From the NCBI GenBank assembly GCA_012518845.1, contig JAAYRJ010000052.1, forward strand, positions 14,381 to 78,380: a stretch of 64,000 nt of DNA, in the 5' to 3' direction. Position 1 is the first letter of the stretch; the number at the start of each line of letters is the position of its first letter. This document shows, piece after piece, positions 241-61,290 of this stretch. A program made the translations under genes and the position numbers. Under the pieces are notes generated by a model that was not told the origin of the DNA, did not search any database, and worked only from the letters and a program-made list of their open reading frames with translations. This DNA is from Clostridiaceae bacterium. GTDB taxonomy: Bacteria > Bacillota > Clostridia > Saccharofermentanales > DTU023.

Positions 241-280
241 GACAGGTTTCACAGACTGTTCATAGGCTTTTTTTGTTTTT
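232..280 (+). terminator. Intrinsic terminator acting as the riboswitch expression platform
   Basis: GCC(232-234)/GGC(265-267) plus ATGGACAG(238-245)/CTGTTCAT(256-263) form the stem, followed by T7-G-T5 (268-280). The 5' arm reuses the GCCC of the aptamer 3' core. Confidence 0.6.
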
Positions 281-311
281 AGAAATATATTGTCAAAATC
301 TGGGAGGGAAA

Positions 312-992
312 ATGAAACTACTATACAAAGGCAAAACCAAAGATGTTTATGAGCTAGACGCCGAAACAGTACGTTTGCAGTTTAAGGATGATGTAACTGG
401 TAAAGATGGTATCTTTGATCCTGGGGCAAATGAAATAGCACTGTCAATCGAAGGAATTGGCAAAAGAAATTTAGCTGTCTCAACTTTGTTTTTTGAAAAA
501 TTAGCTACTAACAATATTCCTACCCACTTTATAAGTTCAGATCTTGAAGCAGGTACAATGGATGCAAAAAAATGTACGCCATTTGGCAAAGGCATTGAGA
601 TCATTCAAAGAAAATATGCGGTCGGCTCTTTTTTGCGTCGTTATGGTCTTTATGCAACAGAAATGATGCCACTTAACAATTATGTAGAGATAACCTTAAA
701 AGATGACAAGAGACAAGATCCACTTATAACCGAAGATGGCTTAGTTGCGTTAAATATTTTAACTCATACACAATACGACTCTTTAATAAACCAAACTAAA
801 CAAATTGTCGATATAATAGATAAGTTTTTAGAAGCTAAAAACTTACAATTGATTGATATTAAATTGGAATTTGGTATTGATACTGAGGATAATGTCCTCT
901 TAACTGACGAAATTTCTAGTGGTAATATGAGAGTTTACCGAAATGGAGAAAAACTAGAGCCAGCAGAATTGACAGATTTAATTCTTGCTTAG
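312..992 (+). CDS. purC: SAICAR synthase (phosphoribosylaminoimidazole-succinocarboxamide synthase)
   Basis: MKLLYKGKTKDVYE N-terminus typical of PurC. The ATG at 312 is preceded by GGGAGGG (302-308). The ORF-track TTG start at 273 lies inside the terminator T-tract. Confidence 0.93.
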   Translation: MKLLYKGKTKDVYELDAETVRLQFKDDVTGKDGIFDPGANEIALSIEGIGKRNLAVSTLFFEKLATNNIPTHFISSDLEAGTMDAKKCTPFGKGIEIIQRKYAVGSFLRRYGLYATEMMPLNNYVEITLKDDKRQDPLITEDGLVALNILTHTQYDSLINQTKQIVDIIDKFLEAKNLQLIDIKLEFGIDTEDNVLLTDEISSGNMRVYRNGEKLEPAELTDLILA

Positions 993-1015
993 TTTTATCA
1001 TAAAAGGAGATCGCA

Positions 1016-1498
1016 ATGAAAGTTGCTATTATAATGGGCAGTAGTTCAGATTATGAGATTGCTCAAAAAGCTTTTCCGCTTTTAGAAAAATTTAACATCC
1101 CATATTTTGTTAGAGTTATTTCAGCTCATCGAGCTCTTGAGATGCTACAAGAATGTGTATCAGAGTTTGAACAAGAAAATGTAAAATGCGTCATTGCTTT
1201 AGCAGGTAAGGCTGCTCATTTACCAGGTGTAGTAGCTGGAATGACAGTTTTACCAGTGATTGGTGTACCAATCAAGGGCTCAGCTTTTTTAGGACTTGAT
1301 TCATTAATGTCTATTGTTCAAATGCCTAAAGGGGTACCGGTTGCTACAGTTGCGGTTGACGCAGCAGACAATGCTGCTATTTTAGCAGCTCAAATCCTTG
1401 CTATTAACTCCAACGACATTACACAAAAATTAAAAGTTTACAAACAAGAATTAGCTGAACATGTCGTTCAACAAGACAAGGAAATCAATACTATATGA
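1016..1498 (+). CDS. purE: N5-CAIR mutase, class I PurE
   Basis: SAHR and AGKAAHLPGV motifs are class I type rather than the class II SAHK/AGRSNGLG type. RBS AAGGAGA lies upstream. Confidence 0.92.
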   Translation: MKVAIIMGSSSDYEIAQKAFPLLEKFNIPYFVRVISAHRALEMLQECVSEFEQENVKCVIALAGKAAHLPGVVAGMTVLPVIGVPIKGSAFLGLDSLMSIVQMPKGVPVATVAVDAADNAAILAAQILAINSNDITQKLKVYKQELAEHVVQQDKEINTI

Positions 1499-2793
1499 GT
1501 GGAATAGTAGGTGTGAGTACTGATAAATCAGTTGTAGCTGCCCATCCTATTATTTATGGGGTATATGCATTACAGCATCGTGGACAGGTAAATACAGGTG
1601 TTGCTTTGTTAGATAATAATCAGTTGGTTGTTAGAAAAGGCTCTGGACAGATTAATGCTTTATTTCCAGATAATATTTCAATGAATATACCAGGAGATAG
1701 GGGTCTAGGTCACGTCAAATATGGCGAGTATTTACAATATGATATTGAACAACCGATATTGCCAAAAGAATATAAAATTAATGGAACAAATTGTCTGATT
1801 ACAATAGATGGCAATATTTTAAACAAAGACTTTTCTTTACACGATTTGGCTCTAGCTTTAAATTCATCTTTGCAAACAGGCAAAGAATATCTGAGTAAAT
1901 TGCAAGGTGCTTTTGCAGGAGTTTATCTGGATCCTTATAAAATGATAGGTTTTCGAGATCCGGTTGGTTTAAAACCACTGTATGCAGGTAAGTTTGATCA
2001 TGGTTATATTTTAGCCTCGGAAACTTGTGCAATTGATTCTACGGGTGCAGATTTAATTCAATCCGTAGACAATGGTGAAATGGTTGTAATTCAAAAAGAC
2101 AAGATTGATTTTTATCGTTACACAGAAAAATTACCAAAGAAAAAATGTATCTTTGAACTTGTTTATATCTCAAGACCGGATAGCTATTTTGATGGATTAT
2201 CTGTCTATCAAGCTAGAAGTCAGATGGGCAAGATTTTATATGAAGAATATCCAACAAGTGCTGATATTGTTATGGGTGCACCAGACTCAGGTCTAATAGC
2301 AGCTGTAGGATATGCTGAAGAATCTAAAATTCCCTATAAAGATGGTATTATAAAAAACAGATATGTAGGTAGAACCTTTTTAACTACAGATGAAAGTGAA
2401 CGCAAAACAGATATTTTTATTAAATTTAATCCAATTAAGGAAGTATTAAGAGATAAAGAAATTGTTTTAGTTGATGATTCAATAATCAAAGGTTCAACTA
2501 TCAAACGAACTATAAAAATGTTAAGAAATGCTGGCGCAAAAAAAATTCATGTTCGAATTTCTTCACCAATTTTGAGGTTCCCTTGCAATTTATCTATGGA
2601 TATTCCAAATGTTAATGACCTAATGGCACATCAAAAAGATGTTGAAGAAATTCGCCAAGAAATTAACGCAGATTCACTTTATTATCTTTCGATGGAGGGT
2701 TTACTTAAAGCTTGTGGACAAGATGATTTTTGTGATCACTGTTTTACAAATAATTATCCAATCAAACCATATGAGGAGGGACTATGGGTTTAA
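1495..2793 (+). CDS. purF: Amidophosphoribosyltransferase (Fe-S type) with a degenerate Ntn glutaminase site
   Basis: LQHRGQ, RDPxGxxPL, PRTase loop VLVDDSIIKGST, and cluster Cys residues (KKC, FPC, CDHC) are present. The start ATG overlaps the purE stop (ATATGA). The protein begins MSGIVG, not MCGIVG. Confidence 0.9.
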   Translation: MSGIVGVSTDKSVVAAHPIIYGVYALQHRGQVNTGVALLDNNQLVVRKGSGQINALFPDNISMNIPGDRGLGHVKYGEYLQYDIEQPILPKEYKINGTNCLITIDGNILNKDFSLHDLALALNSSLQTGKEYLSKLQGAFAGVYLDPYKMIGFRDPVGLKPLYAGKFDHGYILASETCAIDSTGADLIQSVDNGEMVVIQKDKIDFYRYTEKLPKKKCIFELVYISRPDSYFDGLSVYQARSQMGKILYEEYPTSADIVMGAPDSGLIAAVGYAEESKIPYKDGIIKNRYVGRTFLTTDESERKTDIFIKFNPIKEVLRDKEIVLVDDSIIKGSTIKRTIKMLRNAGAKKIHVRISSPILRFPCNLSMDIPNVNDLMAHQKDVEEIRQEINADSLYYLSMEGLLKACGQDDFCDHCFTNNYPIKPYEEGLWV

Positions 2794-3836
2794 CATATAA
2801 GGATTCTGGTGTAGATAAAGAAGCTGGCTATAAACAAGTTAAATTAATCAAAGACATGCTCAAGTCGACTTATACTTCTGGTGTTATTACTGACATAGGT
2901 GGATTTGGTGGTATGTTTCGTTCACCTCAATCAGAGTATGAAAAACCAATTTTGGTTTCGGGTACAGATGGGGTTGGTACAAAATTAGATTTAGCTTTTA
3001 GGACCGATATTCATAATACAGTTGGTATTGATTGCGTTGCCATGTGTGTTAACGATATTTTATGCCAAGGGGCAAAACCATTGTTTTTCCTAGATTATAT
3101 TGCAACAGGCAAATTAATTCCTACAAAGATGGCAGAAATTGTTTCTGGTGTAGTTGAAGGTTGCAAGCAATCAGGCATGGCTTTAATTGGTGGTGAAACT
3201 GCTGAAATGCCGGGCATATACCAAGAAAATCATTATGATTTAGCTGGTTTTGCAGTTGGAATGGTTGATGAAGCAAAAGTTATCGTACCAGAGCGGGTAC
3301 AGGCCGGTGACAAATTAATAGGTCTCCCATCTAGTGGTATTCACTCTAATGGTTTTTCGCTCGTAAGAAAAATAATTTTTGAGCTGCAAAATAAGAGTTT
3401 AGAAGAGTATATACCGGAATTAGATCAAACTTTGGGCAAAAATCTTTTGACGCCAACTAAAATTTATGTAGATGCTGTTTTACCATTAATTGATAAATTT
3501 GATTTGCATGGTATCTGTCATATTACAGGCGGTGGTATTATCGAAAATTTACCAAGAGCTTTAGGACAAAATCAAACAGCTCTTGTAGATCTTTCAGATT
3601 TTGAAATTCCAGCCATATTTAAGCTACTAGCCAAGTGGGGCAAGATAGAAACTAAAGAAATGTTTAATACATTTAACATGGGTATTGGTATGATTTTGAT
3701 TGTAGGAGAGGAAGATTATTCTGCCGTAACTGACGATCTAAATGAACGTCAACAGGATTTCGTTGAAATGGGAGAAGTACTATTAGGTGACGAAGATATC
3801 GAAATTAAATATTCTGACGATTGCTTAGAAATTTAA
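2784..3836 (+). CDS. purM: AIR synthase (phosphoribosylformylglycinamidine cyclo-ligase)
   Basis: YKDSGVDKEAGY, GTDGVGTK and GGETAEMP motifs. The start overlaps the purF end, after GAGGAGGGA. Confidence 0.93.
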   Translation: MGLTYKDSGVDKEAGYKQVKLIKDMLKSTYTSGVITDIGGFGGMFRSPQSEYEKPILVSGTDGVGTKLDLAFRTDIHNTVGIDCVAMCVNDILCQGAKPLFFLDYIATGKLIPTKMAEIVSGVVEGCKQSGMALIGGETAEMPGIYQENHYDLAGFAVGMVDEAKVIVPERVQAGDKLIGLPSSGIHSNGFSLVRKIIFELQNKSLEEYIPELDQTLGKNLLTPTKIYVDAVLPLIDKFDLHGICHITGGGIIENLPRALGQNQTALVDLSDFEIPAIFKLLAKWGKIETKEMFNTFNMGIGMILIVGEEDYSAVTDDLNERQQDFVEMGEVLLGDEDIEIKYSDDCLEI

Positions 3837-3853
3837 TAAAGAAAGTCATTATT

Positions 3854-4474
3854 ATGAAAAAAATTGCCGTGTTGCTTTCGGGTGGTGGATCTAATTTACA
3901 AAGTTTAATTGACAGTCAAAAAGTTGGCTATTTTAAAGGTGAAATAAAACTTGTAATCTCAAATAATAAAAATGCTTTTGGGCTCGAAAGGGCCAGCAAT
4001 AACAACATAGAAGCTATCTATCTCAACAAAGAAGATTATCCGAATAATGAACAATATGATCGTCAAATTTTGAGCCTATTTAAGCAGTATAAAATTGATC
4101 TGGTTGTATTAGCAGGATATCTAAGATATGTAACGCCTGTTTTGCTTGAAGCCTATCCCAATCGTATTATTAATATCCATCCTTCTTTATTACCAGCCTT
4201 TGGAGGCAAGAATTTTTATGGCTCTAAAGTACATGAAGCTGTTTATCAAAGAGGTGCAAAAATTTCTGGAGCAACTGTTCATTTTATTGATGAGGGCCAA
4301 GATACTGGACCGATTATTATTCAAGAGAGTTTGCCGTTAGATCAAGATTGGCAACCAGAAGAAATCGGTCAAGCAGTACTAAAAATAGAACATAAAATAC
4401 TACCTTTAGCAGTTAAATATTTTTGTGATGAGAAATTAACAGTTAAAAATAAGCGTGTTTATATCAAAGCTTAA
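3854..4474 (+). CDS. purN: GAR formyltransferase
   Basis: KIAVLLSGGGSNLQ, HPSLLPAFGG and GATVHFIDEGQDTGPII. The ATG at 3854 is preferred over the TTG at 3821, which overlaps the purM end. Confidence 0.92.
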   Translation: MKKIAVLLSGGGSNLQSLIDSQKVGYFKGEIKLVISNNKNAFGLERASNNNIEAIYLNKEDYPNNEQYDRQILSLFKQYKIDLVVLAGYLRYVTPVLLEAYPNRIINIHPSLLPAFGGKNFYGSKVHEAVYQRGAKISGATVHFIDEGQDTGPIIIQESLPLDQDWQPEEIGQAVLKIEHKILPLAVKYFCDEKLTVKNKRVYIKA

Positions 4475-4529
4475 TTTCATAATTTAAACAATAAATCACT
4501 GAGCAAATGATCAAAAATCGGAGGCAAAA

Positions 4530-5786
4530 ATGAAAGTATTAATAATAGGGAGTGGTGGGCGTGAACACGCTATAGCGGATAGTTTGATTAAAAATGACAG
4601 AATAGAAACTGTTTATTTTTTAACTCATAATGGTGCTGCAAAAGGCAAATTAAAAAATGCCAATTTCCCTGATAATAGTAAAAATTCGATTGATCAATTT
4701 TTGTTGAAGTATCCAGTAGAGCTTGTGATAGTGGGTCCAGAACAACCACTTTCTGAAGGCATAGTTGATTATATTCAAGAAAAAGGTATTAAAGTTTTTG
4801 GTCCACATAAAAAGGCTGCCAGATTAGAAGCGAGTAAAGCTTTTGCCAAACGATTTATGGAGGAACAAAATATTCCAACTGCTAAATATATTGAGTATGA
4901 CAATTATGAATCAGCTCTTAATGGTCTAGATAATTTTGAATTTCCTTTAGTAATTAAAGCCGATGGCCTTTGTGCAGGCAAAGGTGTTGTTATTTGCCAA
5001 AATTATTCTGAGGCCAAAAAAGCTTTAGCCGATATGTTTAAAGAAAAGATTTTTGGTGACCAAGCCCAAACAGTTATTATAGAGGAATTTTTGTCTGGAT
5101 TTGAAGCCTCTTTACTTTGTTTTGTTTCAGGTTCCAAAATATACCCTTTAGACACTGCTATGGATTATAAGAAAATTTATGAAAATGATCTTGGACCAAA
5201 TACTGGTGGTGTAGGGATGATATCACCTAATCCATACTGGAACAGTAATTTACAATCTCAATCGGATATTATTATTAAAAAAATAGAAAATGGTCTAAGC
5301 CAGAGAGGTCTTGAGTATAGTGGAATATTATTTATTGGATATTTGATTGAAGATGGAAAAATCTATGTTCTAGAATTTAATGTGCGTTTTGGTGATCCTG
5401 AAACAGAAGCTCTTTTGCCACGTCTTCATTCTGATTTATTAGAGAATATAGAAGAATCAATTAATCGTTTGCCTGTTAATTTAAAGTTTGATAATAAAGT
5501 AGCATTGGCAACTTTATTAGTTTCAAAAGGTTATCCCGCTTCATTTGAGAAAGGCAAAGTTATTTCAGGCTTAGAAGATTGTGACCCTGATATTAAGATT
5601 TATCACAATGGGACAAAAAATATTGATGATAAAATTTTAAGTAACGGTGGACGAGTACTGTCTATAGTCGCAGTTAAAGATACATTAGAAGAGGCAAGAG
5701 AAGCTGTTTATCAAAATATTCCTAAAATTTCATTTGAAAATATGAGCTATCGAACAGACATTGGCCAACTCAAAAATTATGATTAA
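4530..5786 (+). CDS. purD: Phosphoribosylamine-glycine ligase (GAR synthetase)
   Basis: MKVLIIGSGGREHA N-terminus, ATP-grasp core and GDPETE motif. Confidence 0.94.
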   Translation: MKVLIIGSGGREHAIADSLIKNDRIETVYFLTHNGAAKGKLKNANFPDNSKNSIDQFLLKYPVELVIVGPEQPLSEGIVDYIQEKGIKVFGPHKKAARLEASKAFAKRFMEEQNIPTAKYIEYDNYESALNGLDNFEFPLVIKADGLCAGKGVVICQNYSEAKKALADMFKEKIFGDQAQTVIIEEFLSGFEASLLCFVSGSKIYPLDTAMDYKKIYENDLGPNTGGVGMISPNPYWNSNLQSQSDIIIKKIENGLSQRGLEYSGILFIGYLIEDGKIYVLEFNVRFGDPETEALLPRLHSDLLENIEESINRLPVNLKFDNKVALATLLVSKGYPASFEKGKVISGLEDCDPDIKIYHNGTKNIDDKILSNGGRVLSIVAVKDTLEEAREAVYQNIPKISFENMSYRTDIGQLKNYD

Positions 5787-21771: not shown

Positions 21772-21867
21772 TCTTTTATCGCTTTACCACTTTAGCGAGA
21801 TAAAGTAAAATTGTTATCAGAAAACATTTGTTATAGATTAATGCTATTATTTTTATTGGAGAAAAAG

Positions 21868-22680
21868 ATGTCTAATCAAGTAATTTTAGAAAAATTTAAT
21901 TTGGCGATTGAGTATATGACTTTGCTTGCTGAGTATAACTATAAATTAATCGATCTTAATATGATTGAACCTTTTCGAATTGAGGACAAAGAATTTCAAC
22001 CTAGTAGTCTTGTATTTGAGAGAAATGAAACTATGTATGCTATTCGAAGTGACTGGACAAGGTCACTGTTAAATTATAATGATAGTTATTTTCTTGATGA
22101 TCGTATGTTTTGTTATTTTGGAACTGTTATTCGTGATTATCAATCTTTTTATCAGGCGGGTGTTGAACTTTACGAACCAAGCGAAGTAGAAATGCTAAAA
22201 AGTATTCAAATTCATTTAGACTTTGTTAAAAATAAAATAAGAAATCAAGGTAAAAATATAACGGCTTTAATTCTAAATAATGATCGATTTATTGATTTGT
22301 TTATTGAAAAATATGATTTGTCGGAAAGTATTCGTACTTTGATTTATGAAAAAAATCTGAGTGAATTAAAAAATCAGCTTGAGCCTGATAATCCTCTCTT
22401 AAAAATTCTACAAGCAAGAGTTAGCGAGCAGTATACTTTGCTAGCGAGCGAATTTTCGAATACAGAAGAATTGCAAACTATTGAAAAAATCAAAAAAATA
22501 GCAGATCAAGAAAATCTTAAGTTTATGATAGACTTGTCGTTTAAATCACCTCAGGGCTATTACAATGGTTTATATTTTCAGGCTTTCATAAATTATCATA
22601 CCCCAATTTTAAGTGGTGGTGAGTACGATAATCGGGCTTTTGGTATTGCCCTCAATATTGAAGATGGAGGACTTTTATGA
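21868..22680 (+). CDS. hisZ: ATP phosphoribosyltransferase regulatory subunit (short HisZ)
   Basis: HisRS-like motifs (IRSDWTRS, YQAGVELY, GGEYDN). It is translationally coupled to the short-form hisG. The ATG at 21868 follows GGAG. Confidence 0.75.
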   Translation: MSNQVILEKFNLAIEYMTLLAEYNYKLIDLNMIEPFRIEDKEFQPSSLVFERNETMYAIRSDWTRSLLNYNDSYFLDDRMFCYFGTVIRDYQSFYQAGVELYEPSEVEMLKSIQIHLDFVKNKIRNQGKNITALILNNDRFIDLFIEKYDLSESIRTLIYEKNLSELKNQLEPDNPLLKILQARVSEQYTLLASEFSNTEELQTIEKIKKIADQENLKFMIDLSFKSPQGYYNGLYFQAFINYHTPILSGGEYDNRAFGIALNIEDGGLL

Positions 22681-23282
22681 TTACTGTTGCCTTGCCTAAA
22701 GGTAGATTATTAAAAGAAGTTATTGCATATTTAGAGTCCTGTGACCTAAAAAAATATGCAGATAAACTTGATCCAAAATCACGACTACTCTTTACGGATG
22801 TTGATGGAATCCGTTTTGTTTATGCTAAAGGCAGAGATGTGCCTACCTATGTTGAATCAGGAATAGCCGATTTAGGTTTTATTGGTTCTGACATTATTAC
22901 TGAAAACAAATTTGAATTGTTAAATGTGTCGCAACTGCCATTTGGCTATTGTCGTTTTTCATTATGTGGTTTACCAGGTGTTAAGCAATTTAAGAGTGTA
23001 GCCACAAGCTTTTACAATATTTCTTTTCAATATTTTAAAAAGAAAAAACAGCAAGTTTCATTTATCCATTTACACGGCTCGGTTGAGCTTGCACCTTTAT
23101 TAGGTTTAGCAGACGGAATCGTCGATATTGTCCAAACAGGTAGCACTTTAAAAGCAAATGGTTTGATTGAGTATGAAACGATTATGGATGTCCAGGCTTG
23201 TTTAATTGCTAATAGGCAAACATTTTATACAAAAGAAGCTGAAGTTTATCCTTTTTTGAAAAAGTTAGGAGTTTTTGAATAA
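22677..23282 (+). CDS. hisG: ATP phosphoribosyltransferase, short form
   Basis: ITVALPKGRL N-terminus and DIVQTGSTLKANGL motif. At 201 aa it is the HisZ-dependent type. Confidence 0.92.
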   Translation: MITVALPKGRLLKEVIAYLESCDLKKYADKLDPKSRLLFTDVDGIRFVYAKGRDVPTYVESGIADLGFIGSDIITENKFELLNVSQLPFGYCRFSLCGLPGVKQFKSVATSFYNISFQYFKKKKQQVSFIHLHGSVELAPLLGLADGIVDIVQTGSTLKANGLIEYETIMDVQACLIANRQTFYTKEAEVYPFLKKLGVFE

Positions 23283-24541
23283 TGAAATTAGAGTTACCTG
23301 AAATTCAGGCTGCTAGAGAATATCTTGCTCAGTTTTCCCAAGTTAAAGAAGCCGAAGATCAAGAATCTTTAAGCCAAGTAATGGATATTCTGCAAAATGT
23401 TCGCAAGTATGGTGATAACGCTTTATTTGAATATACAGAGAAATTTGATGGTCAGAAATTAGAGAAGTTTAAAGTTCCAGAAACGTGGCTCGAGCAAAGT
23501 TATCTTGCACTGGAGCCAGAGTTGCGTCAAGCATTGGAATTTATTAAGCAGCGAATTCAAAAGTACGAAGAACAAATAAAATATAAAGACAAAGAATTAA
23601 CTGAATTTAAATATGTCTATCATCCGATTGAAAAAGTAGGTTTCTATGTCCCAGGCGGCACAGCTTTATATCCATCATCTGTACTTATGAGTATTATTGC
23701 TGCTCAGGTAGCCGGCGTGCCCAAGATCTATGCAGTTACACCAACTTTTGAAGAAAATAATATTACATTTGCAACTCTTTATATTTGCGGCGTGACGAAT
23801 GTTTATCAAATAGGTGGAGCTCAAGCAATTGCAGCTTTAGCCTATGGCACCGAGAGCATTCCTAAAGTCGATAAAATTGTAGGCCCAGGAAATCGTTATG
23901 TAGCTTTAGCAAAACGATTAGTCTTTGGTGAAGTTGGAATTGATTCTATAGCTGGACCTAGTGAAATTTTGCTTTATATTGATGAAAATGTTGATCCAGA
24001 ATCAATTACATTAGATATTTTTGCTCAAGCAGAACATGATCCAGATGCTAAAACTTTTTTATTAGCAGAAAATAAAAAGATTTTGAAAGATATACATGCT
24101 TTGATTGTGAAAAAACTGCCTGAGCAAAAACGTAGTGATATTATTACTCAGTCAATTAATAATAATCATTATTCCATTATTGGTGAAGCAAAAGATTTAA
24201 TTGCTATTATTAATCAGATAGCACCAGAGCATGTTTCGATCCAACATGCAAATTCAGACGAAATAATTTCAAAAATCCATTATGCTGGTGCAATTTTTAA
24301 GGGCAATTACTCGCCAGAGGCCATAGGCGATTATGTGGCAGGACCATCCCATGTCTTACCAACAAGTGGTAGTGCCAGATTTAGTCATGGTCTTAATGTA
24401 AATGATTTTTTGACTAGTCATGCAATTATAGATATTGAACCTGAAACTTATCAGCAAATTGCTCCGTATGGGATCAAAGTCGCATATGCGGAAGGACTTT
24501 ACGCACATGCCGAAAGTTTAGAGGCAAGATTAAAAGAATAA
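23282..24541 (+). CDS. hisD: Histidinol dehydrogenase
   Basis: IAGPSEIL, QAEHD and PEHV motifs. Confidence 0.94.
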   Translation: MKLELPEIQAAREYLAQFSQVKEAEDQESLSQVMDILQNVRKYGDNALFEYTEKFDGQKLEKFKVPETWLEQSYLALEPELRQALEFIKQRIQKYEEQIKYKDKELTEFKYVYHPIEKVGFYVPGGTALYPSSVLMSIIAAQVAGVPKIYAVTPTFEENNITFATLYICGVTNVYQIGGAQAIAALAYGTESIPKVDKIVGPGNRYVALAKRLVFGEVGIDSIAGPSEILLYIDENVDPESITLDIFAQAEHDPDAKTFLLAENKKILKDIHALIVKKLPEQKRSDIITQSINNNHYSIIGEAKDLIAIINQIAPEHVSIQHANSDEIISKIHYAGAIFKGNYSPEAIGDYVAGPSHVLPTSGSARFSHGLNVNDFLTSHAIIDIEPETYQQIAPYGIKVAYAEGLYAHAESLEARLKE

Positions 24542-24582
24542 TATTTTATTGAATAAAATACCTAGTGAAAGAGAAGAACAAT

Positions 24583-25572
24583 ATGATAATCATGAATCGT
24601 AATACCAGTCCCATCAAGCCTTTGACAGATGAACAAATTTTTAATGCTGTGAAAAAAACAAATTATAATCAATATCCAGATCAGGAACGAATAAATTTTA
24701 TTAATTTATATGCCGATTATTTTGGCTTTAATCCAGACAATATAGAAGTAGCTAATGGCTCTGATGAATGGATTCAAAAATTGATTATAACGCTTGGTAA
24801 AAACGGGGTAATGTCTTTAAATCCCGATTTTGTGATGTATCAAATCTATACAGAACAATTTTTGCCAGAAATTTATTTTGTTAATGCTGAGCCTGATTTT
24901 ACCTTTGATTTTGATAAAGTAATTGTTGCCATCAAAGCTAAAAAACCTTCATTATTTTTAATATCTAATCCACAAAATCCAACCGGTACGATGTTTAGTA
25001 CCCAAGATTTGCAACGTTTAGCTGATGCTATGGCAGAGGTTGATGGTTATCTTGGCTTAGACGAGTGTTATATTGATTTTGCTAAAGATTACGAACGACC
25101 AAAGGGAAAAAATATTATTATTCTCAGAACTTTAAGTAAAGTTTATGGGATGGCAGGCTTGCGTGTAGGGATGGCAATTGCGGAAAAAGAAACTTTGGAT
25201 ATAATCACTCAAATAAATCATCCTTACCCTTTAAATTCACTAGCGTTAAATTTAGCCAGTGAATTGTTTTCGGATAAAAAAGCTTTACAAAAATTCAAAA
25301 ATTATCAATTTGAGAGTAAAGCTAGATTAGAGACAGCCTTAGATCAAGTTTCAGATTTAATGGAAATAAAAGAATCTTATACTAATTATATTTTTACTTA
25401 TGGTGATGCTGCAATAGATATGGCAAACTTTTTATTGGATAAAGGATTTTTGAGTCGCATCTATGATGTACCGATCTTACAAAATGCAGCTCGTTATTCA
25501 ATTATCAAATTAGAAGAATATCAAGCATTAAATGAGGCAATTATAGAATGGAGAAATCAGTATGTTGAGTAG
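24583..25572 (+). CDS. hisC: Histidinol-phosphate aminotransferase
   Basis: SNPQNPTG and LSKVYGMAGLRVG motifs. The start is uncertain (GTG 24565, ATG 24583 or ATG 24592). Confidence 0.88.
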   Translation: MIIMNRNTSPIKPLTDEQIFNAVKKTNYNQYPDQERINFINLYADYFGFNPDNIEVANGSDEWIQKLIITLGKNGVMSLNPDFVMYQIYTEQFLPEIYFVNAEPDFTFDFDKVIVAIKAKKPSLFLISNPQNPTGTMFSTQDLQRLADAMAEVDGYLGLDECYIDFAKDYERPKGKNIIILRTLSKVYGMAGLRVGMAIAEKETLDIITQINHPYPLNSLALNLASELFSDKKALQKFKNYQFESKARLETALDQVSDLMEIKESYTNYIFTYGDAAIDMANFLLDKGFLSRIYDVPILQNAARYSIIKLEEYQALNEAIIEWRNQYVE

Positions 25573-26143
25573 GAAAAGAGAAACGCTAGAAACTAAAATC
25601 GAATTGAAATTAGCCGAGCAAACAGATACAAATGAAAGATCGGAAATAGATACAGGTATAGGTTTTTTTGATCATATGCTTACTTTGTTGGCATTTCACT
25701 CCAATTTATTTTTATCGGTTAAGGCTGATGGTGATTTAGAAGTAGATTTTCACCATACAGTTGAAGATACTGGTATTGTTCTTGGTGAATTAATTTATGA
25801 GCTATATCAAAGCAAAAAGTCTTTTGGACGTTATGGTTTTTTCTACTTGCCGATGGATGAATCTTTAGCAAGAGTCACACTTGATTTATCTGGACGACCA
25901 GGTTTTTATTTTAACTGTAATTTTGCTAGTGAAAAAGTTGGAGAGTTTGATACGGAACTTGTTAAAGAGTTCTTCAATGCGGTGGCAATGAATGCGAAAA
26001 TGACTTTGCATATTGATTTGTTAAAAGGTGGAAATAGCCATCATGAAATTGAAGCTGTCTTTAAGGCATTTGGTCGTAGCCTGGCTATTGCCTTAGAAAC
26101 CAAAACAGGTGGAGTGCCATCTTCCAAAGGGGTGATTGCATGA
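25562..26143 (+). CDS. hisB: Imidazoleglycerol-phosphate dehydratase
   Basis: GIGFFDHML, HHTVEDTGI and GGNSHHEIEA motifs. Monofunctional (193 aa). Confidence 0.94.
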   Translation: MLSRKRETLETKIELKLAEQTDTNERSEIDTGIGFFDHMLTLLAFHSNLFLSVKADGDLEVDFHHTVEDTGIVLGELIYELYQSKKSFGRYGFFYLPMDESLARVTLDLSGRPGFYFNCNFASEKVGEFDTELVKEFFNAVAMNAKMTLHIDLLKGGNSHHEIEAVFKAFGRSLAIALETKTGGVPSSKGVIA

Positions 26144-26847
26144 TTGATATTATTCCAGCAATAGATTTAATCGAAGGTCAAAGTGTTAGATTAGAACAAG
26201 GCGATTATCAAACAAAATCCTTAATGCCAAGAACAGCTAAAGAAGCGATAAAATTTTACAATCAATTTGAACAAGTTAAAGGGATTCATATTATTGATCT
26301 TCTAGCAGCTAAGGAAAAAAAGGCAAAAGAGATGGATTTGATTTCAGAACTTAGGGCTTTGACAGATTTGCCAATACAAATTGGTGGTGGTTTGAGAAAT
26401 GAAGAAACAATTCGGTTTTACGATAGTAAAGGCATTGACTACTTTATTTTAGGTACAAAAGCAATAACAGATTTTGCTTGGCTAGAAGAGATGACAAACT
26501 TATTTCCAGCCCGAATTATAGTTGGCATTGATGCTAGAGACGATTATATTTATATAAATGGCTGGACAGAGAATTCCGGTATTCAAATTCCAGATCATTT
26601 AGCAAAAATTGAAAAACTTAATTTGCAAGGAATTATTTATACAGATATCGCTAAAGATGGGATGAATAAAGGTCCCAATTTTGAAAAAACTGCCGCCTTA
26701 GCTAAAAATACAAGACATAAAGTAATTGCTAGCGGTGGAGTACGTGATAATTCAGATTTGAAAAAGTTAGCAGCACTTGAAATACCAGCGGCAATTGTTG
26801 GTAAAGCAGCTAACACAGATGCTTTTTGGCAATCAATTGTTGATTAG
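26140..26847 (+). CDS. hisA: ProFAR isomerase
   Basis: IIPAIDL, QIGGGLR and ASGGV motifs. Its ATG overlaps the hisB stop (ATGA), leaving no room for hisH. Confidence 0.92.
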   Translation: MIDIIPAIDLIEGQSVRLEQGDYQTKSLMPRTAKEAIKFYNQFEQVKGIHIIDLLAAKEKKAKEMDLISELRALTDLPIQIGGGLRNEETIRFYDSKGIDYFILGTKAITDFAWLEEMTNLFPARIIVGIDARDDYIYINGWTENSGIQIPDHLAKIEKLNLQGIIYTDIAKDGMNKGPNFEKTAALAKNTRHKVIASGGVRDNSDLKKLAALEIPAAIVGKAANTDAFWQSIVD

Positions 26848-26856
26848 AGGGCAGAC

Positions 26857-27624
26857 ATGATAGAGAAAACAAGAAAAATTCTTCCTTGTCTTGATATAAG
26901 AAATGGGAAAGTAGTTAAAGGTGTAAATTTTGAAAATATTAGAGAAATGGGCGATCCAGTCGAGTTGGCAACCAAATATGGAGCGGCAGGAGCTGATGCC
27001 CTAGCTTTTTTAGATATAACAAAAACTAAAGAGAAGCATGGATTTTATCTAGATCTAATTTCTGAAATTACAAGCAACATTGAGATTCCGCTATTTGTGG
27101 GTGGAGGTATTAGCACGCTTAAAGATATTAATTTAATATTAAATGCTGGTGCCAGCAAAGTTAGTATTGCTTCTGCAGCTCTAACAAATCCTAACTTTAT
27201 CTCAGATGCAGCTTCTGAATTTGGACACGACAAAATAATTATTGCATTAGATGTTGCCCAAGATTTAGCTGACAATAAATATTATGCTTATACTCATGGA
27301 GGTCAGAAAAAAACAGATTTTGAAGTGTTTGAACTAATTGAAAAATTTGACCAAATTGGAGTGTCAGCATTTTTGATTACGGGAATTTCATTTGATGGCT
27401 CAAAATCTGGCTTTGACCTTGCTTTTTTTAAAGAAGCAGGAAAAAGAACAAATACAACTTTAATCGCAAGTGGTGGTGCTGGAAAAATTGAAGATTTCGT
27501 TGATTTATTTCAAAAAACAAATGTTGAATATAGTTTAGCAGCTTCTATTTTTCATCAAAACACAGTAAATATTAGAGAGCTAAAACAAAATTTAGCTTCG
27601 AAAAACATTAATGTTAATCTGTAA
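26857..27624 (+). CDS. hisF: Imidazole glycerol phosphate synthase cyclase subunit
   Basis: ILPCLDIRNGKVVKG, VGGGI and ASGGAG motifs. The catalytic Asp equivalents (D13, D132) are present. Confidence 0.93.
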   Translation: MIEKTRKILPCLDIRNGKVVKGVNFENIREMGDPVELATKYGAAGADALAFLDITKTKEKHGFYLDLISEITSNIEIPLFVGGGISTLKDINLILNAGASKVSIASAALTNPNFISDAASEFGHDKIIIALDVAQDLADNKYYAYTHGGQKKTDFEVFELIEKFDQIGVSAFLITGISFDGSKSGFDLAFFKEAGKRTNTTLIASGGAGKIEDFVDLFQKTNVEYSLAASIFHQNTVNIRELKQNLASKNINVNL

Positions 27625-27679
27625 TTTCTCTCTAGAAAAAAGCAAAATTTCCAAACTAATTAAAAGCGAAAGGATTATT

Positions 27680-28303
27680 ATGCAACCTGATTTTACAAAA
27701 AATAATGGCTTGTTATCTGTTATTTTACAGGACTTTGATACAAAACAAGTTTTAATGAATGGCTTTATGAATGAAGAAGCCTATAAATTAACCAAACAAG
27801 AAAATGTTGTTTGGTTTTATTCTAGATCAAAACAACGTCTTTGGAAAAAAGGGGAATCAAGTGGCCATGTTCAACATGTTGTAGAAATGACACTTGATTG
27901 TGATCAAGATGCCCTTCTAATTCAAGTTGTTCCGGCTGGACCAACTTGCCATCTTGGCAATACCAGTTGTTTTGATGATCCTTATTTTAATCTGGAAATT
28001 CTAGAAAAAACTATTCAAGATCGCATAAAAAATCCTAAAGAGGGTTCCTATACAAAATATTTGTTGGAACAAGGTTTAGATAAAATTTTGAAAAAAAGCA
28101 GTGAAGAAATGACCGAAACTATAATCGCTAGTAAAAATCAGGATAAAAATGAGATAATAGCAGAAGCATCGGATTTACTTTACCATGTAATTTTATTGTT
28201 AAATTCTCAAAAAATTTCTTTGAATGATGTCAAAGAAAATTTAGCAAAAAGACATGGCAAGGTACAGTCTTACAAGCGTCGAAAAGAAATTACAAATTGG
28301 TAA
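27680..28303 (+). CDS. hisI: Bifunctional PR-AMP cyclohydrolase / PR-ATP pyrophosphatase
   Basis: WFYSRSKQRLWKKGESSGH and DCDQDALL (HisI part), and a C-terminal HisE helix bundle (EASDLLYHVILLL). The ATG at 27680 follows AAAGGA. Confidence 0.9.
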   Translation: MQPDFTKNNGLLSVILQDFDTKQVLMNGFMNEEAYKLTKQENVVWFYSRSKQRLWKKGESSGHVQHVVEMTLDCDQDALLIQVVPAGPTCHLGNTSCFDDPYFNLEILEKTIQDRIKNPKEGSYTKYLLEQGLDKILKKSSEEMTETIIASKNQDKNEIIAEASDLLYHVILLLNSQKISLNDVKENLAKRHGKVQSYKRRKEITNW

Positions 28304-29091: not shown

Positions 29092-29099
29092 GGGTTAAA

Positions 29100-31074: not shown

Positions 31075-34000
31075 CTACTTAAAGTAATCAACAGCGGATT
31101 TAAATAATCCAAGATCATATTCACCGACGACATTTTTATACAAATGCTTGCCAATTCTTTCGCTATGTCCCATCTTTCCAAAAATTCTACCATCTGGTGA
31201 AGTAATACCTTCAATAGCATAAATGGAGCCGCTTGGATTGTATTCTATTTCATAAGATGGTTTACCAGCCATATCTACATATTGTGTGGCAATTTGACCG
31301 TTTTTGATTAATTCATTTAATGTTGCTTCATCTGCTATAAATCTTCCCTCGCTATGAGCTATTGGTACTTGATAAATTTTGCCAAGCTCCGCATTTGCTA
31401 ACCAAGCTGACTTATTTGAGACAACTTTTGTTCGCACAATTTTTGATTGATGGCGCTGGATTGTATTATAGGTGAGAGTAGGTGCGTTAGGTTTTAGGTC
31501 AACAAATTTACCATAGGGGAGTAAACCCAGTTTGATTAAAGCTTGAAAGCCGTTGCCAATTCCCAAAATTAGGCCATCTCTATTTTCTAATAAATCTTCT
31601 ATTGCCAACCTTATTTGAGGTTTACGTAGGAAGGTTGTAATAAATTTTGCTGCACCTTCAGGTTCGTCACCTGCAGATGCCCCGCCAGAAAGAAAAATAA
31701 TTTGACTTTCCTTAATTTTTTGAGTCAGTTTTTGCACAGATTCTTGAATAGAGTTAGGTTTTAAGTTTTTGATAATGAAAATCTCAGGTTCAGCACCTGC
31801 TTGAAGCCAAGCTTTTGCAGCTTCATATTCACCATTTGTACCTGGAAATACAGGTAATAATACTTTTGGATTTTCAATTGTTACATTAGCTTTTAAAGTT
31901 TCATTTAGCTTGCAAGAGATCTCTGGAATGGATGTTTTGTTTTCTGGAGCTTTTGTCCTAAACACAGATTCTAATTTATTTTCATACAGTTTTTCTAACT
32001 CATCGATTTCCAGAATTGTGTTTTGGAAGCTGAGCTGATATTTGCCCGTTGTTTGTCCTAGCTTTTTTACAACAAATTGCTCACTGTTGAAAGCAGATAA
32101 ATCTAATGTGTCTTTGAGCTCTATCACAAAAGATCCATAATTATATTTAAATAGCTCTGTTTGACAAATGTCTTGCTCAAATTCAAAACCAACTCGGTTC
32201 CCAAGTGTCATTTTAAAAATTGCTTCAGCAATACCGCCATGTCCAGGCGTATATGCCGCTAAAACTTCACCATCCCTAATTGCATTGACTATATATTCAA
32301 ACAATGCTAATTGTGAAATTTTTTCAGGTAAATTATTATTTTCAAATGGTTCTAATACATAGACTTGATGCTCTGGCTTTTTAAATTCTGGCGATATAAT
32401 ATTTTTAGAATAATCTGTTGTCACAGCAAAGGAAACTAATGTAGGTGGAACGTCTAAATGCTCAAATGAGCCACTCATGGAGTCTTTACCGCCAATAGCC
32501 GCAATTTTATAATCCATTTGCGCTTGGAAAGCACCTAGCAAGGCAGCAAAAGGCTTACCCCAACGTTTGGGATCATTTTCTAGTCGTTCAAAATATTCTT
32601 GAAAGGTTAGGTAAATTTCATTAAGATCTGAACCTGCCGCTATCAGCTTAGCTATTGATTCCACTACAGCTAAGTAAGCACCGTGATAGGGACTTTTTTC
32701 TGATATATAAGGATTAAAGCCAAAGGCCATTAAAGAACAATTTTCTGTTTCATGGTTTTCAACTGAAATTTGATGTGCCATTGCTTGAATGGGAGTTCTT
32801 TGGTATTTCCCTCCATAAGGCATCAAAATTGTACCAGCCCCTGCAGTAGAATCAAATTGTTCTGCCAGACCACGTTTTGAGCAAACATTTAAATCAGTTA
32901 CTAAACCTTCCATATTTGCTTTAAAATCAGATTGGGGTGCAGATTTTTGATAAGTCTGAGGCTTAACAGTTTCAATCTGAATATGTTTTTGAGCACCGTT
33001 GGAATCCATAAATTCACGTGAAAGATCAACTATTTTTTGATCGCGCCAATGCATTACTAGGCGTGGCTCTTCAGTAACTACTGCAATTACTGTTGCTTCA
33101 ACATTTTCACTTTCTGCTAACTTAATAAAACGATCTGCATCTTCTGGAGCTACGACAACAGCTAACCTTTCTTGGGATTCGCTAATTGCTAATTCGGTCC
33201 CATCTAAACCTTTGTATTTTGTTGGAACCAGATCCAAATTAATTTTCAGCCCAGCTGCTAGTTCACCAACTGCCACCGAGACACCACCTGCTCCAAAGTC
33301 ATTGCAACGTTTTATTAATTGTGAAACTTGTTTATTTCTAAACAATCTTTGCAATTTTCTTTCTTCTGGCGCATTACCTTTTTGTACTTCTGCACCTGAA
33401 GTTTCAAATGAGTCGACAGTATGTGATTTTGAAGAGCCTGTAGCTCCACCAAGACCATCACGTCCTGTTCTGCCACCTATTAAAATTACGACATCATCTG
33501 CAACTGGAGTTTCGCGTCTGACATTTTCTGCTGGGGTTGCAGCTACAACAGCACCAATTTCCATTCTTTTAGCCGCATAGCCAGGATGATATAATTCAGC
33601 AACTTTGCCGGTAGCAAGACCAATTTGGTTACCGTAGGAACTGTAGCCATCGGCAGCAACGGTGGTAATTTTTCTTTGTGGTAACTTTCCTTCAAATACA
33701 GGTTTATTATCTAAGGGATTAGCTGCCCCAGTTACACGCATGGCAGCGTAAACATATGAACGTCCAGATAAAGGATCTCTAATAGCACCACCCAGACAAG
33801 TTGCTGCTCCACCAAAAGGCTCAATTTCGGTTGGGTGATTATGGGTTTCATTTTTAAATAATAATAGCCATTCTTCTAGCTCACCATTTATTTCAATATC
33901 GATTTTCACCGTACAAGCATTAATTTCATCAGAAACATCAAGCTTGTCTAATTGACCATTTTCTCTTAAGAATTTTGCTACAATCGTACCAAGATCCATT

Positions 34001-34791
34001 AAAGTAATAGGTTTTTCACGCTTTAATTTTGATCTAACCTCAAGGTATTCTTGATAAGAATTTTCAAGCAGCTCATCTTCGAAAGTAACTTTATCAATAT
34101 TTGTCAAAAAGGTAGTATGACGACAATGATCAGACCAGTAGGTATCGATAACTCTAATTTCAGTTAGAGTAGGATTGCGTTTTTCATTCTTAAAATAATC
34201 TTGACAGAATAACAAATCGTCAAGGTCCATTGCTAATTCATATTTGTCCAAAAACTGATTTAAACCTGTTTTGTCTAAATTAATAAAATCTTGTAAAACT
34301 TCGACATTTGCCGGTTCTTCGTACTTAAGTTGTAGAGTTTCATACTCTCCTAGTCTAGCTTCTCTAGATTCGATAGGATTAATAATATGTTCTTTAATAG
34401 CGACGAGGTTTTCTTGTGTAAGATCACCACTCAATACATAAACTTTTGCAAACCGAACTAGCGGTTTTTCTGTTTGAGTTACAAGTTGTATACACTCAGC
34501 AGCAAAATCAGCTCTTTGATCATATTGACCCGGTAATAGTTCTACTACAAAAACATAATCCGTATGATCATACTCTAACGTTTCATATACCATATCAACA
34601 GGTGCTTCGGAAAATATTGTTGTTTTTATTGATTCAAAGACTTCCTCTGAGATGTTTTCTACATCATATCGATTGATGATTCGTAAGTTATTGATACCAT
34701 CAATCTCAAGAAGTGATATAATTTCTGATTTAAGAAGTAAAGCTTCTGTAGCTAATTCTTGTTTTTTTTCGGAATATACACGATAGACCAT
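31075..34791 (-). CDS. purL: Large single-chain FGAM synthase (PurS-like + PurL + PurQ-like domains) with a mutated glutaminase nucleophile
   Basis: 1238 aa. ETHNHPT, DFGAGG and GGKDSMSG are synthetase motifs. The C-terminal class I GATase-like domain (about 31075-31869) has GIGNGFQ, AHSEGRF and GHSER. Confidence 0.92.
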   Translation of the reverse strand: MVYRVYSEKKQELATEALLLKSEIISLLEIDGINNLRIINRYDVENISEEVFESIKTTIFSEAPVDMVYETLEYDHTDYVFVVELLPGQYDQRADFAAECIQLVTQTEKPLVRFAKVYVLSGDLTQENLVAIKEHIINPIESREARLGEYETLQLKYEEPANVEVLQDFINLDKTGLNQFLDKYELAMDLDDLLFCQDYFKNEKRNPTLTEIRVIDTYWSDHCRHTTFLTNIDKVTFEDELLENSYQEYLEVRSKLKREKPITLMDLGTIVAKFLRENGQLDKLDVSDEINACTVKIDIEINGELEEWLLLFKNETHNHPTEIEPFGGAATCLGGAIRDPLSGRSYVYAAMRVTGAANPLDNKPVFEGKLPQRKITTVAADGYSSYGNQIGLATGKVAELYHPGYAAKRMEIGAVVAATPAENVRRETPVADDVVILIGGRTGRDGLGGATGSSKSHTVDSFETSGAEVQKGNAPEERKLQRLFRNKQVSQLIKRCNDFGAGGVSVAVGELAAGLKINLDLVPTKYKGLDGTELAISESQERLAVVVAPEDADRFIKLAESENVEATVIAVVTEEPRLVMHWRDQKIVDLSREFMDSNGAQKHIQIETVKPQTYQKSAPQSDFKANMEGLVTDLNVCSKRGLAEQFDSTAGAGTILMPYGGKYQRTPIQAMAHQISVENHETENCSLMAFGFNPYISEKSPYHGAYLAVVESIAKLIAAGSDLNEIYLTFQEYFERLENDPKRWGKPFAALLGAFQAQMDYKIAAIGGKDSMSGSFEHLDVPPTLVSFAVTTDYSKNIISPEFKKPEHQVYVLEPFENNNLPEKISQLALFEYIVNAIRDGEVLAAYTPGHGGIAEAIFKMTLGNRVGFEFEQDICQTELFKYNYGSFVIELKDTLDLSAFNSEQFVVKKLGQTTGKYQLSFQNTILEIDELEKLYENKLESVFRTKAPENKTSIPEISCKLNETLKANVTIENPKVLLPVFPGTNGEYEAAKAWLQAGAEPEIFIIKNLKPNSIQESVQKLTQKIKESQIIFLSGGASAGDEPEGAAKFITTFLRKPQIRLAIEDLLENRDGLILGIGNGFQALIKLGLLPYGKFVDLKPNAPTLTYNTIQRHQSKIVRTKVVSNKSAWLANAELGKIYQVPIAHSEGRFIADEATLNELIKNGQIATQYVDMAGKPSYEIEYNPSGSIYAIEGITSPDGRIFGKMGHSERIGKHLYKNVVGEYDLGLFKSAVDYFK

Positions 34792-34850
34792 ATTTGTCTC
34801 CAGTCTTCATAAAATGTCTGAGCTTACTAAGTATTAGTAATTGCAGTACA

Positions 34851-61247: not shown

Positions 61248-61290
61248 ATTACTTTAATATGATGTTTGACTAATTATGCGAGGGAAAATT

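Follow-up and report, generated by a model that had tools for sequence, protein, structure and literature searches.

Glutamine amidotransferases, whose glutaminase triad is regarded as invariant, are the textbook route by which nitrogen enters nucleotides and amino acids. The gene considered here, a purL, lies in a stretch of 64,000 nucleotides from a Clostridiaceae bacterium (positions 14,381 to 78,380 of contig JAAYRJ010000052.1, assembly GCA_012518845.1; this whole stretch is called the window), and its product, the query PurL, is a large formylglycinamidine ribonucleotide (FGAM) synthase in which the nucleophilic Cys of the C-terminal glutamine amidotransferase (GATase) domain is replaced by Gly. 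A comparable replacement is known from CPS I, the ammonia-dependent carbamoyl phosphate synthetase (CPS). In the human enzyme, Ser294 takes the place of the catalytic Cys of the GATase-like domain, and glutamine is not usable (PMC4655335); the CPS III of the fish Alcolapia is reported to have adapted convergently to ammonia (PMC7657897). CPS I, which uses free ammonia, and the query are both multidomain amidotransferases that have kept a Cys-replaced class I GATase-like domain, and a move towards ammonia has reportedly taken place more than once. The query differs in that it is bacterial, acts at step 4 of the purine pathway, has Gly and not Ser at the nucleophile position, and belongs to a family in which the loss has been repeated many times; its use of ammonia is presumed.

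Regarding the PurL proteins themselves, the canonical large forms (StPurL from Salmonella, 1T3T; the human FGAM synthase, FGAMS; the TIGR01857 family) share with the query the three domains, the synthetase motifs, the His/Glu/Arg of HxER and the Asp of gate 3, while the query lacks their nucleophile Cys, the Phe of the oxyanion strand and several near-invariant pocket residues. In human FGAMS, F1117 and Y1202 form "gate 2" at the entry of the glutaminase site, and R1300 and D685 form "gate 3" at the ammonia channel's mouth; the F1117A variant loses gating and leaks ammonia (PMC13013826). In StPurL, N1051 makes a hydrogen bond to G1092 that holds the oxyanion strand (PMC7124931).

Small PurL deprived of PurQ and PurS is an FGAM synthetase working without a glutaminase, as the query would be; however, this lone state is a laboratory condition, whereas the query is naturally so, with its glutaminase and PurS-like domains fused to it and under selection. 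Small PurL alone reportedly has ammonia-dependent activity, a result attributed to the 2004 work of Hoskins et al. PurQ and PurS are needed only for the glutamine-dependent activity (PMC7605207). The vFGAM synthase/vGAT proteins of herpesviruses (TIGR01739) are also PurL homologues without a working glutaminase triad (PMC7605207), but their role is in immune evasion and they fail to complement purine synthesis, whereas the synthetase motifs of the query are intact; moreover, the query scores 31 bits against a TIGR01739 cutoff of 716, and it is not a member of the viral family. Finally, the Cys was present without exception in the archaeal PurQ and PurL proteins that one study surveyed (PMC3261824), and no description of a Cys-less bacterial PurL was found in the literature searched; public annotation gives such proteins the plain name phosphoribosylformylglycinamidine synthase (NCBI names; TIGR01857 equivalog).

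In the window, purL (31075..34791, minus strand) is monocistronic and encodes 1238 amino acids, identical to NCBI NLJ94264.1 from a metagenome-assembled genome (MAG: Clostridiaceae bacterium). The nucleophile-elbow motif, at residues 1077 to 1083 (31543..31563, minus strand), is G-I-G-N-G-F-Q, encoded by GGA ATT GGC AAC GGC TTT CAA; direct reading confirmed in this respect the initial annotation, which had noted that the nucleophile codon GGC is one base away from TGC. The codon in question, at 31555..31557 of the minus strand, specifies Gly1079 at a position that is normally Cys (TGY). In a HMMER alignment, Gly1079 pairs with the Cys of LGVCNGCQ in the Salmonella PurL 1t3t, at SEQRES index 1143 of the deposited chain of 1303 amino acids; this residue is taken to be the catalytic Cys1135, on the assumption that the deposited chain has 8 extra N-terminal residues. 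Likewise, GHSER of the query aligns with the His/Glu of MPHPER in 1t3t. The nucleophile column is Cys in all 119 aligned Cys-type homologues and in all 80 PurLs of the nearest GTDB species genomes, with no exception among the 199 closest homologues checked, which include P0002, a syntenic sister with 71% identity.

Gly1079 is not an artefact of sequencing or assembly. The exact protein was read on 10 contigs from several assemblies, with sources including ENA, Logan, JGI and the NCBI entry given above; two of these contigs come from runs SRR3184648 and SRR3184554 of a biogas fermenter metagenome (PRJNA311381). In addition, a 96%-identical protein, P0001, found on contig L003 of the unrelated run SRR30427510, has the same GGC codon, and its gene differs from that of the query at 167 sites (dS, the synonymous divergence, is 0.15). 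An error, or a rare deleterious allele confined to one population, would be easy to picture with GGC a single base from TGC, but this explanation can be set aside with near certainty: all the independent assemblies have GGC and none TGC, the diverged relative concords with them, Gly comes together with 13 or more other changes at columns invariant in homologues, and the same state recurs across many other lineages.

These accompanying changes are concentrated around the glutamine site. Among columns with at least 95% conservation, the query deviates at 23 of 141 in the GATase domain against 28 of 394 in the synthetase domain (Fisher p = 0.002), and 14 GATase columns that are invariant in the 119 homologues are altered, including C987G, P1035S, G1040A, S1047A, C1079G, P1129A, S1145A and G1147S; F1038A falls at a column conserved in 118 of the 119. 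Not one Cys is left in the domain, whereas the Cys-type homologues have a median of 4. As for the oxyanion strand and the glutamine pocket, their conserved pattern is broken by P1035S, F1038A, G1040A, S1047A, S1145A and G1147S, all at invariant or near-invariant columns. C987G (31831..31833, minus strand) lies in the loop motif PGTN(C>G)E, beside Asn986; this column is Cys in 119 of 119 homologues and Gly in 23 of 33 Gly variants. The oxyanion strand, residues 1035 to 1042 (31666..31689, minus strand), reads S-G-G-A-S-A-G-D where the family has P-G-G-F-S-G-G-D. The drift to GGASAGD reported by the initial annotation is thus present, as SGGASAGDE with P1035S, F1038A and G1040A, although the reference motif chosen there (GGFSYGD) was not the right one, the clade having PGGFSGGDE. 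The same annotation had described AHSEGRF as retained, but the family motif is SHGEGRF, invariant in 119 of 119, and the A-H-S-E-G-R of the query (residues 1145 to 1150; 31342..31359, minus strand) departs from it at two invariant positions, through S1145A and G1147S. Its statement on the triad partners did hold: G-H-S-E-R, residues 1208 to 1212 (31156..31170, minus strand), retains His1209 and Glu1211, followed by Arg1212, which corresponds to R1300 of human gate 3 because it directly follows the catalytic Glu.

The same positions degenerate in other Cys-less forms, as judged from two separate samples in which residues of Cys-type and Cys-less proteins were compared. In the set of diverse representatives, N986, the equivalent of StPurL N1051, is kept in 59 of 60 Cys-type and 4 of 11 Cys-less sequences; the corresponding values are 59/60 and 5/9 for F1038, 55/60 and 2/11 for S1047, 59/61 and 5/10 for H1146, 58/61 and 2/11 for G1147, and 57/61 and 2/11 for N1187. 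C987 follows this pattern, near-invariant in Cys-type and variable in Cys-less proteins. In the Cys-less representatives, the HxER residues are instead kept: H1209 in 10 of 11, E1211 in 11 of 11, and R1212 in 11 of 11 and in 18 of 18 of the other set (29/29 pooled). D647, which would be the Asp of human gate 3 as inferred from position only, is kept in 17 of 17 and 9 of 10 Cys-less forms of the two sets (26/27 pooled). This distribution fits a glutamine-binding and oxyanion apparatus freed from selection in a domain whose fold and channel mouth are probably still constrained. F1038A is exactly the change of the human F1117A variant: in both, the Phe of the GGF oxyanion loop becomes Ala, which in the human enzyme opens the gate to the glutaminase site (PMC13013826); the human variant is engineered, keeps Cys1158 and leaks ammonia outward, whereas in the query the opening would serve its entry.

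Regarding the rest of the protein, it matches TIGR01857 over its full length, scoring 1804 bits (cutoff 1057) across positions 2-1239 of the 1239 in the profile, and Pfam detects FGAR-AT_linker, AIRS_C and GATase_5, the three-domain architecture of this clade II family. The N-terminal PurS-like domain and linker occupy residues 1 to 220 (34132..34791, minus strand), as indicated by the full-length TIGR01857 match and a linker Pfam match at residues 182 to 225; a Shine-Dalgarno sequence, GGAG (34798..34801, minus strand), is read 6 nt upstream of the ATG at 34789-34791. The FGAM synthetase domain, placed by its motifs at residues 221 to 960 (31912..34131, minus strand), has THNHP (316-320), GGAATC (327-332), DFGAGG (498-503), SESQER (537-542) and GGKDSMSG (767-774) all intact, without a single non-conservative deviation within the five motifs relative to the 119 Cys-type homologues; His317 and His319 are also kept in 18 of 18 metagenome Gly variants. 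The C-terminal class I GATase domain (GATase_5), residues 975 to 1237 (31081..31869, minus strand), gives a Pfam E value of 9e-74 over profile positions 2-260 of 260, and can be aligned with the glutaminase domains of StPurL and TmPurQ. By sequence and architecture, the query is a member of the large-PurL family that fails the glutaminase triad defining it, and since this triad fails, the protein is best called an amidotransferase with a putatively vestigial glutaminase domain.

The gene is the orthologous purL and it is not decaying. Its closest Cys-bearing relative is P0002 (contig L086), which is 71% identical to it over the whole length and 76% identical in the synthetase domain, and the neighbours are the same: a hisH-less his operon, a P-II-like gene and DUF1538 on one side; EamA, ask, hom, thrC and opp on the other. 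In a neighbour-joining (NJ) tree of the synthetase domain, the query falls into one clade with P0001 and P0002 (100% bootstrap), and because the Cys-bearing sister shares both the clade and the neighbours on both sides, the sequence evidence is that the query purL is an orthologue and no paralogue. A GATase domain recombined in from another Gly lineage was also considered and rejected, the domain being nearest to that of the Cys-bearing P0002, while other Gly variants are at most 57% identical to it.

Concerning selection, the ratio of nonsynonymous to synonymous rates (dN/dS) between the query and its 96%-identical relative is 0.13 overall, 0.088 in the synthetase domain, 0.27 in the N-terminal domain plus linker and 0.17 in the GATase domain; the last value comes from only 36 substitutions, yet neutrality is still rejected (p = 6e-7). 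The gene is still under purifying selection. The state of CPS I, a replaced Cys in a domain under purifying selection, is found here as Gly1079 with dN/dS of 0.17, and in other Gly lineages with 0.08-0.14 (0.079, 0.135 and 0.14 within three of them, at dS of at least 1, similar to the rest of the protein).

The initial annotation had treated the Gly as a single oddity, but the Cys-less state turned out to be recurrent and widespread. A scan of JGI metagenome contigs for DNA encoding G-[IV]-G-N-G-F-Q-A-L gave 104 stretches, and the figures that follow are from 80 of these 104 loci. At least 46 GATase domains of the PurL/PurQ family have Gly at the nucleophile position; most belong to clade-II large PurLs of 1220-1290 amino acids and are 40-57% identical to the query domain, and several of the loci are directly beside purE, purM, purC, purD or purF. 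Exact-sequence lookups placed Gly PurLs in MAGs of Epulopiscium, Acutalibacteraceae, Halanaerobiaceae, Tissierellia, Oscillospiraceae and Anaerovoracaceae; the Halanaerobiaceae sequence occurs on 54 contigs, one of which is 2.18 Mb long. A profile search with the Gly-variant GATase domains returned only Cys-type fragments.

As for the history of the Gly state, the synthetase-domain NJ tree gives 0% bootstrap to the monophyly of all Gly forms and nests the query lineage among Cys forms, so that a single ancient Gly clade was rejected. The Gly clade of L097, L131 and L164 joins the Cys-bearing L083 with 90% support, and every Gly lineage has some Cys-type sequence nearer to it than are the Gly forms of other clades. 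The non-monophyly, the nesting, the grouping with L083 and the nearer Cys-type neighbours point to at least three well-supported independent origins, probably more. Within one 90% cluster of Anaerovoracaceae (L150; P0404-P0418), some members have GIGNGFQ and others GIENGFQ, and such variation between Gly and Glu among close relatives suggests that no catalytic constraint is left at the nucleophile position.

The frequency of the state was estimated on the best 150 representatives (P0420-P0569) of 50% identity clusters from the whole library, scored against the query domain: the nucleophile is Cys in 123, Gly in 17, Ser in 6, Asp in 2 and Asn in 1, and 26 are Cys-less, about 17%, a share inflated to an unknown degree because the query itself is Cys-less and because fast-evolving lineages split into more clusters. 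In some of the Cys-less representatives the His residues of the synthetase are gone as well, and these may be complete pseudoenzymes. Two further groups were met during the scan. Eight loci (L119, L112, L152, L104, L151, L107, L147 and L156) encode distant PurQ-like or E. coli-like GATase domains, with 30-34% identity and Gly as the nucleophile-site residue; GGFS(Y/F)GD is preserved in most and HGEGR in several, and they may be recent losses or errors. The other group is an unrelated family with "(V/I)P.GVGNGFQAL(E/A)" (L087, L088, L095, L124, L128, L141, L142, L157, L160, L163 and L166), which implies that the GxGNGFQAL motif is not specific to PurL.

From these data, the most likely function of the query PurL is ammonia-dependent FGAM synthesis, which is considered probable. 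The fuller account, that the protein is the ordinary orthologous FGAM synthase of the organism, that its GATase domain is permanently inactivated, that free ammonia is used, and that the dead domain acts as a scaffold and probable ammonia port, is also judged rather likely. According to this account, the glutaminase would have become permanently dead when the nucleophile Cys (replaced by Gly1079) and the surrounding glutamine-pocket residues were lost, and FGAM would be made from formylglycinamide ribonucleotide (FGAR), ATP and free ammonia. The dead domain would persist because the three-domain architecture includes it; with small residues now in place (C1079G, C987G, F1038A and S1047A), the former glutamine site and gate 2 would stand open; and, with Arg1212 and Asp647 conserved at the channel mouth, the domain would probably be the entrance of the internal ammonia channel. 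A similar proposal had been made in the initial annotation, that the domain is kept without hydrolyzing glutamine, perhaps for structure or as an ammonia entrance; the loss of nucleophile and pocket, the purifying selection, the conserved channel mouth and F1038A lend it support, and the step in which ammonia enters through the domain is one that we infer. The habitat would suit such an enzyme, as biogas fermenters, from which the query comes, typically hold very high ammonia.

Several points weigh against this reading. The ammonia level of the source reactor is not documented in the data reached, and nothing was found on PRJNA311381. The E. coli PurL and the small PurL of Bacillus subtilis reportedly use NH4+ poorly, with a Km of about 0.5-1 M (values ascribed to the 1989 work of Schendel et al. 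and the 2004 work of Hoskins et al.), and with such a Km, efficient ammonia use would need an adaptation not visible from sequence alone. Triad residues His1209 and Glu1211 are kept in 94-100% of Cys-less forms, a retention that a purely structural role leaves unexplained. About 87 kb of the genome was inspected, and a separate set of purQ, purS and small purL, or a second purL, could lie elsewhere. Finally, a residue that would couple the synthetase to the glutaminase was sought at position 524, which is Thr in the query (33220..33222, minus strand), Lys or Arg in 81 of 81 Cys-type sequences of its subclade and Lys in only 1 of 19 Gly forms; it has been replaced in each of the three Gly lineages that fall within the Lys-conserving subclade. 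However, Lys occurs in only 24 of 58 diverse Cys-type representatives, which indicates that the pattern is largely phylogenetic; K524 was dropped as a universal coupling residue, and position 524 stays as a weak lead.

The limited coverage of the genome leaves room for an arrangement in which glutamine is still used and ammonia is supplied in trans by a separate glutaminase, either a stand-alone PurQ or another GATase; indeed, PurQ-type glutaminases acting in trans exist for small PurL (PMC3261824). Nevertheless, Pfam and tblastn found no purQ, purS or small purL on the 86.7-kb contig, tblastn found no second PurL/PurQ (GATase_5) homologue within the window, and no second GATase_5 gene is present in the flanks of any of the 46 Gly loci, those within pur clusters among them; where an organism has a large PurL, purQ and purS are normally absent (PMC3261824), and a supply in trans is regarded as unlikely. 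The fate of the nucleophile and of the pocket could also be that of a pseudoenzyme or a decaying gene, making no FGAM in an organism that lives on purine salvage, or having a non-catalytic role like the herpesvirus homologues; viral PurL-like pseudoenzymes exist (PMC7605207), and the Cys-less representatives without synthetase His residues would agree with this. The query itself does not look like one of these, given its dN/dS of 0.09 in the synthetase domain and 0.13 overall, synthetase motifs that are intact in it and in the 18 metagenome Gly variants, the occurrence of Gly variants embedded in pur clusters, an intact purCEFMND operon in the same window and the poor TIGR01739 score, so that a pseudoenzyme is improbable too.

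Glutamine might also still be hydrolyzed by the GATase domain itself through a non-thiol mechanism, for example by water activated by the His-Glu pair, whose conservation in the Cys-less forms would then have a reason; likewise, the Ser found in 6 of the 150 representatives could in principle be a nucleophile. On the other hand, Gly offers none, the residues N986, F1038, S1047, H1146, G1147 and N1187 degenerate in Cys-less forms, Glu is tolerated at the site in the close relatives of the Anaerovoracaceae cluster, and replacement of the catalytic Cys abolishes glutamine use both in CPS I (PMC4655335) and in PurF (PMC3261824); such a mechanism is very unlikely.

Regarding the other nitrogen-related genes, the pur operon purC-purE-purF-purM-purN-purD (273..5786, plus strand; Pfam on the genes of contig k127_206021 and tblastn of the window) is intact and lies 25 kb from purL on the same contig. 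The product of purF (1495..2793, plus strand) begins with M-S-G-I-V-G and not M-C-G, the Ser codon being AGT at 1498-1500; PurF has, in other words, Ser in place of the catalytic Cys1 of its N-terminal nucleophile (Ntn) domain, and in addition HNGN has Asp in place of its oxyanion Asn, and the stretch where SDSE would normally be found is deleted. In E. coli PurF, the variants C1S and C1A lose the glutamine-dependent activity and keep the ammonia-dependent one (PMC3261824). Archaeal PurF' and the Ser-PurF paralogue of M. labreanum are, like the PurF of the window, Cys-less homologues of a purine amidotransferase, and have been proposed to be ammonia dependent (PMC3261824); compared with the query PurL, they belong to a different type, with a class II Ntn domain that belongs to step 1 of the pathway, and those of archaea accompany a normal PurF as paralogues. 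The MSG start occurs in more than 100 of the 120 best PurF homologues, including those of Treponema phagedenis, Schnuerera, Gudongella and Lagierella, and the Ser1 clade thus extends well beyond this lineage; the sequence pattern suggests a large bacterial clade of Ser1-PurF, with conserved motifs of its own, that is apparently undescribed. A fixed linkage between Ser1 in PurF and Gly in PurL was rejected as a rule: the PurF beside the Gly PurL has a normal Cys in L089 and L096, and the Ser1 clade is wider than the lineage.

Closer to purL, the his operon hisZ-G-D-C-B-A-F-IE (21811..28303, plus strand), in which hisB and hisA overlap by 4 nt, has no hisH. Its HisF (hisF at 26857-27624) differs from HisF-LUCA (4evz) in an alignment by R5K, E46A, D98S and E167A, positions presumed, from the T. 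maritima literature, to form the ammonia gate and the HisH interface. The sister contig L086 is also without hisH, and its HisF shares D98S and E167A and keeps E46. This suggests that the imidazole glycerol phosphate synthase of the organism is HisH independent and ammonia dependent. A type III glutamine synthetase is encoded at 61276-63378 (plus strand), which means that glutamine is still made.

The window would accordingly hold three mechanistically different amidotransferases without glutaminase function, and the losses appear to be of different ages; their presence within 64 kb supports ammonia as the working nitrogen donor of the organism. As far as can be read from the proteins, the Cys-less state of PurL is recurrent, widespread and unannotated, and in this organism it co-occurs with the two further glutaminase losses. 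A broader proposal is that the Cys-less large PurLs are an unrecognised convergent class of ammonia-dependent FGAM synthetases whose dead domain is an open ammonia port, here as one step in a broader re-wiring by which nitrogen transfer moves away from glutamine; it is put forward tentatively, with chances somewhat short of even. Roughly one in six sampled clade-II cluster representatives would belong to the class, which would occur in anaerobic Bacillota of digesters and, judging by contig names, presumably of guts. In this lineage, the re-wiring would consist of Gly in PurL, Ser1 in PurF and a HisH-less HisF with the ammonia gate removed, all within 64 kb, and the selective force could be either ammonia-rich habitats or a pressure to spare glutamine and ATP.

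If a sizeable share of the large PurLs of anaerobic Bacillota does use free ammonia, the nitrogen donor given for purines, and possibly for histidine, in metabolic reconstructions of biogas and gut communities is wrong. The Cys-less forms could also be read as numerous independent natural "knock-outs" that separate residues of the glutaminase chemistry (N986, F1038, S1047, H1146, G1147 and N1187) from those of the channel and scaffold (the Arg of HxER and Asp647), a separation that bears on the current structural debate over gating in PurL and human PFAS. If the proposal is true, these proteins would offer an experimentally tractable bacterial counterpart to the way in which CPS I evolved from CPS III, and glutamine analogues such as DON (6-diazo-5-oxo-L-norleucine) and azaserine would be expected to spare them.

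Finally, some minor features of the window can be listed. Convergent to purL, the region 28429-30980 (plus strand) encodes the P-II-like protein, of about 214-220 amino acids with a weak PF00543 match and no NCBIfam match, followed by a DUF1538 protein of 626 amino acids, which is a fusion of UmpA-like and UmpB-like halves; this pair lies beside purL in the 96%-identical (L003) and 71%-identical (L086) relatives as well. An Rfam scan of window positions 1-64000 at the gathering threshold gave no riboswitch, T-box or other RNA family, despite the presence of pur, his, aro, thr, lys/dap and opp operons. As for aspartate kinase, two genes are present on the plus strand, at 35996-37309 and 57065-58270, one in an ask-hom-thrC cluster and the other in a lysA/dap cluster.

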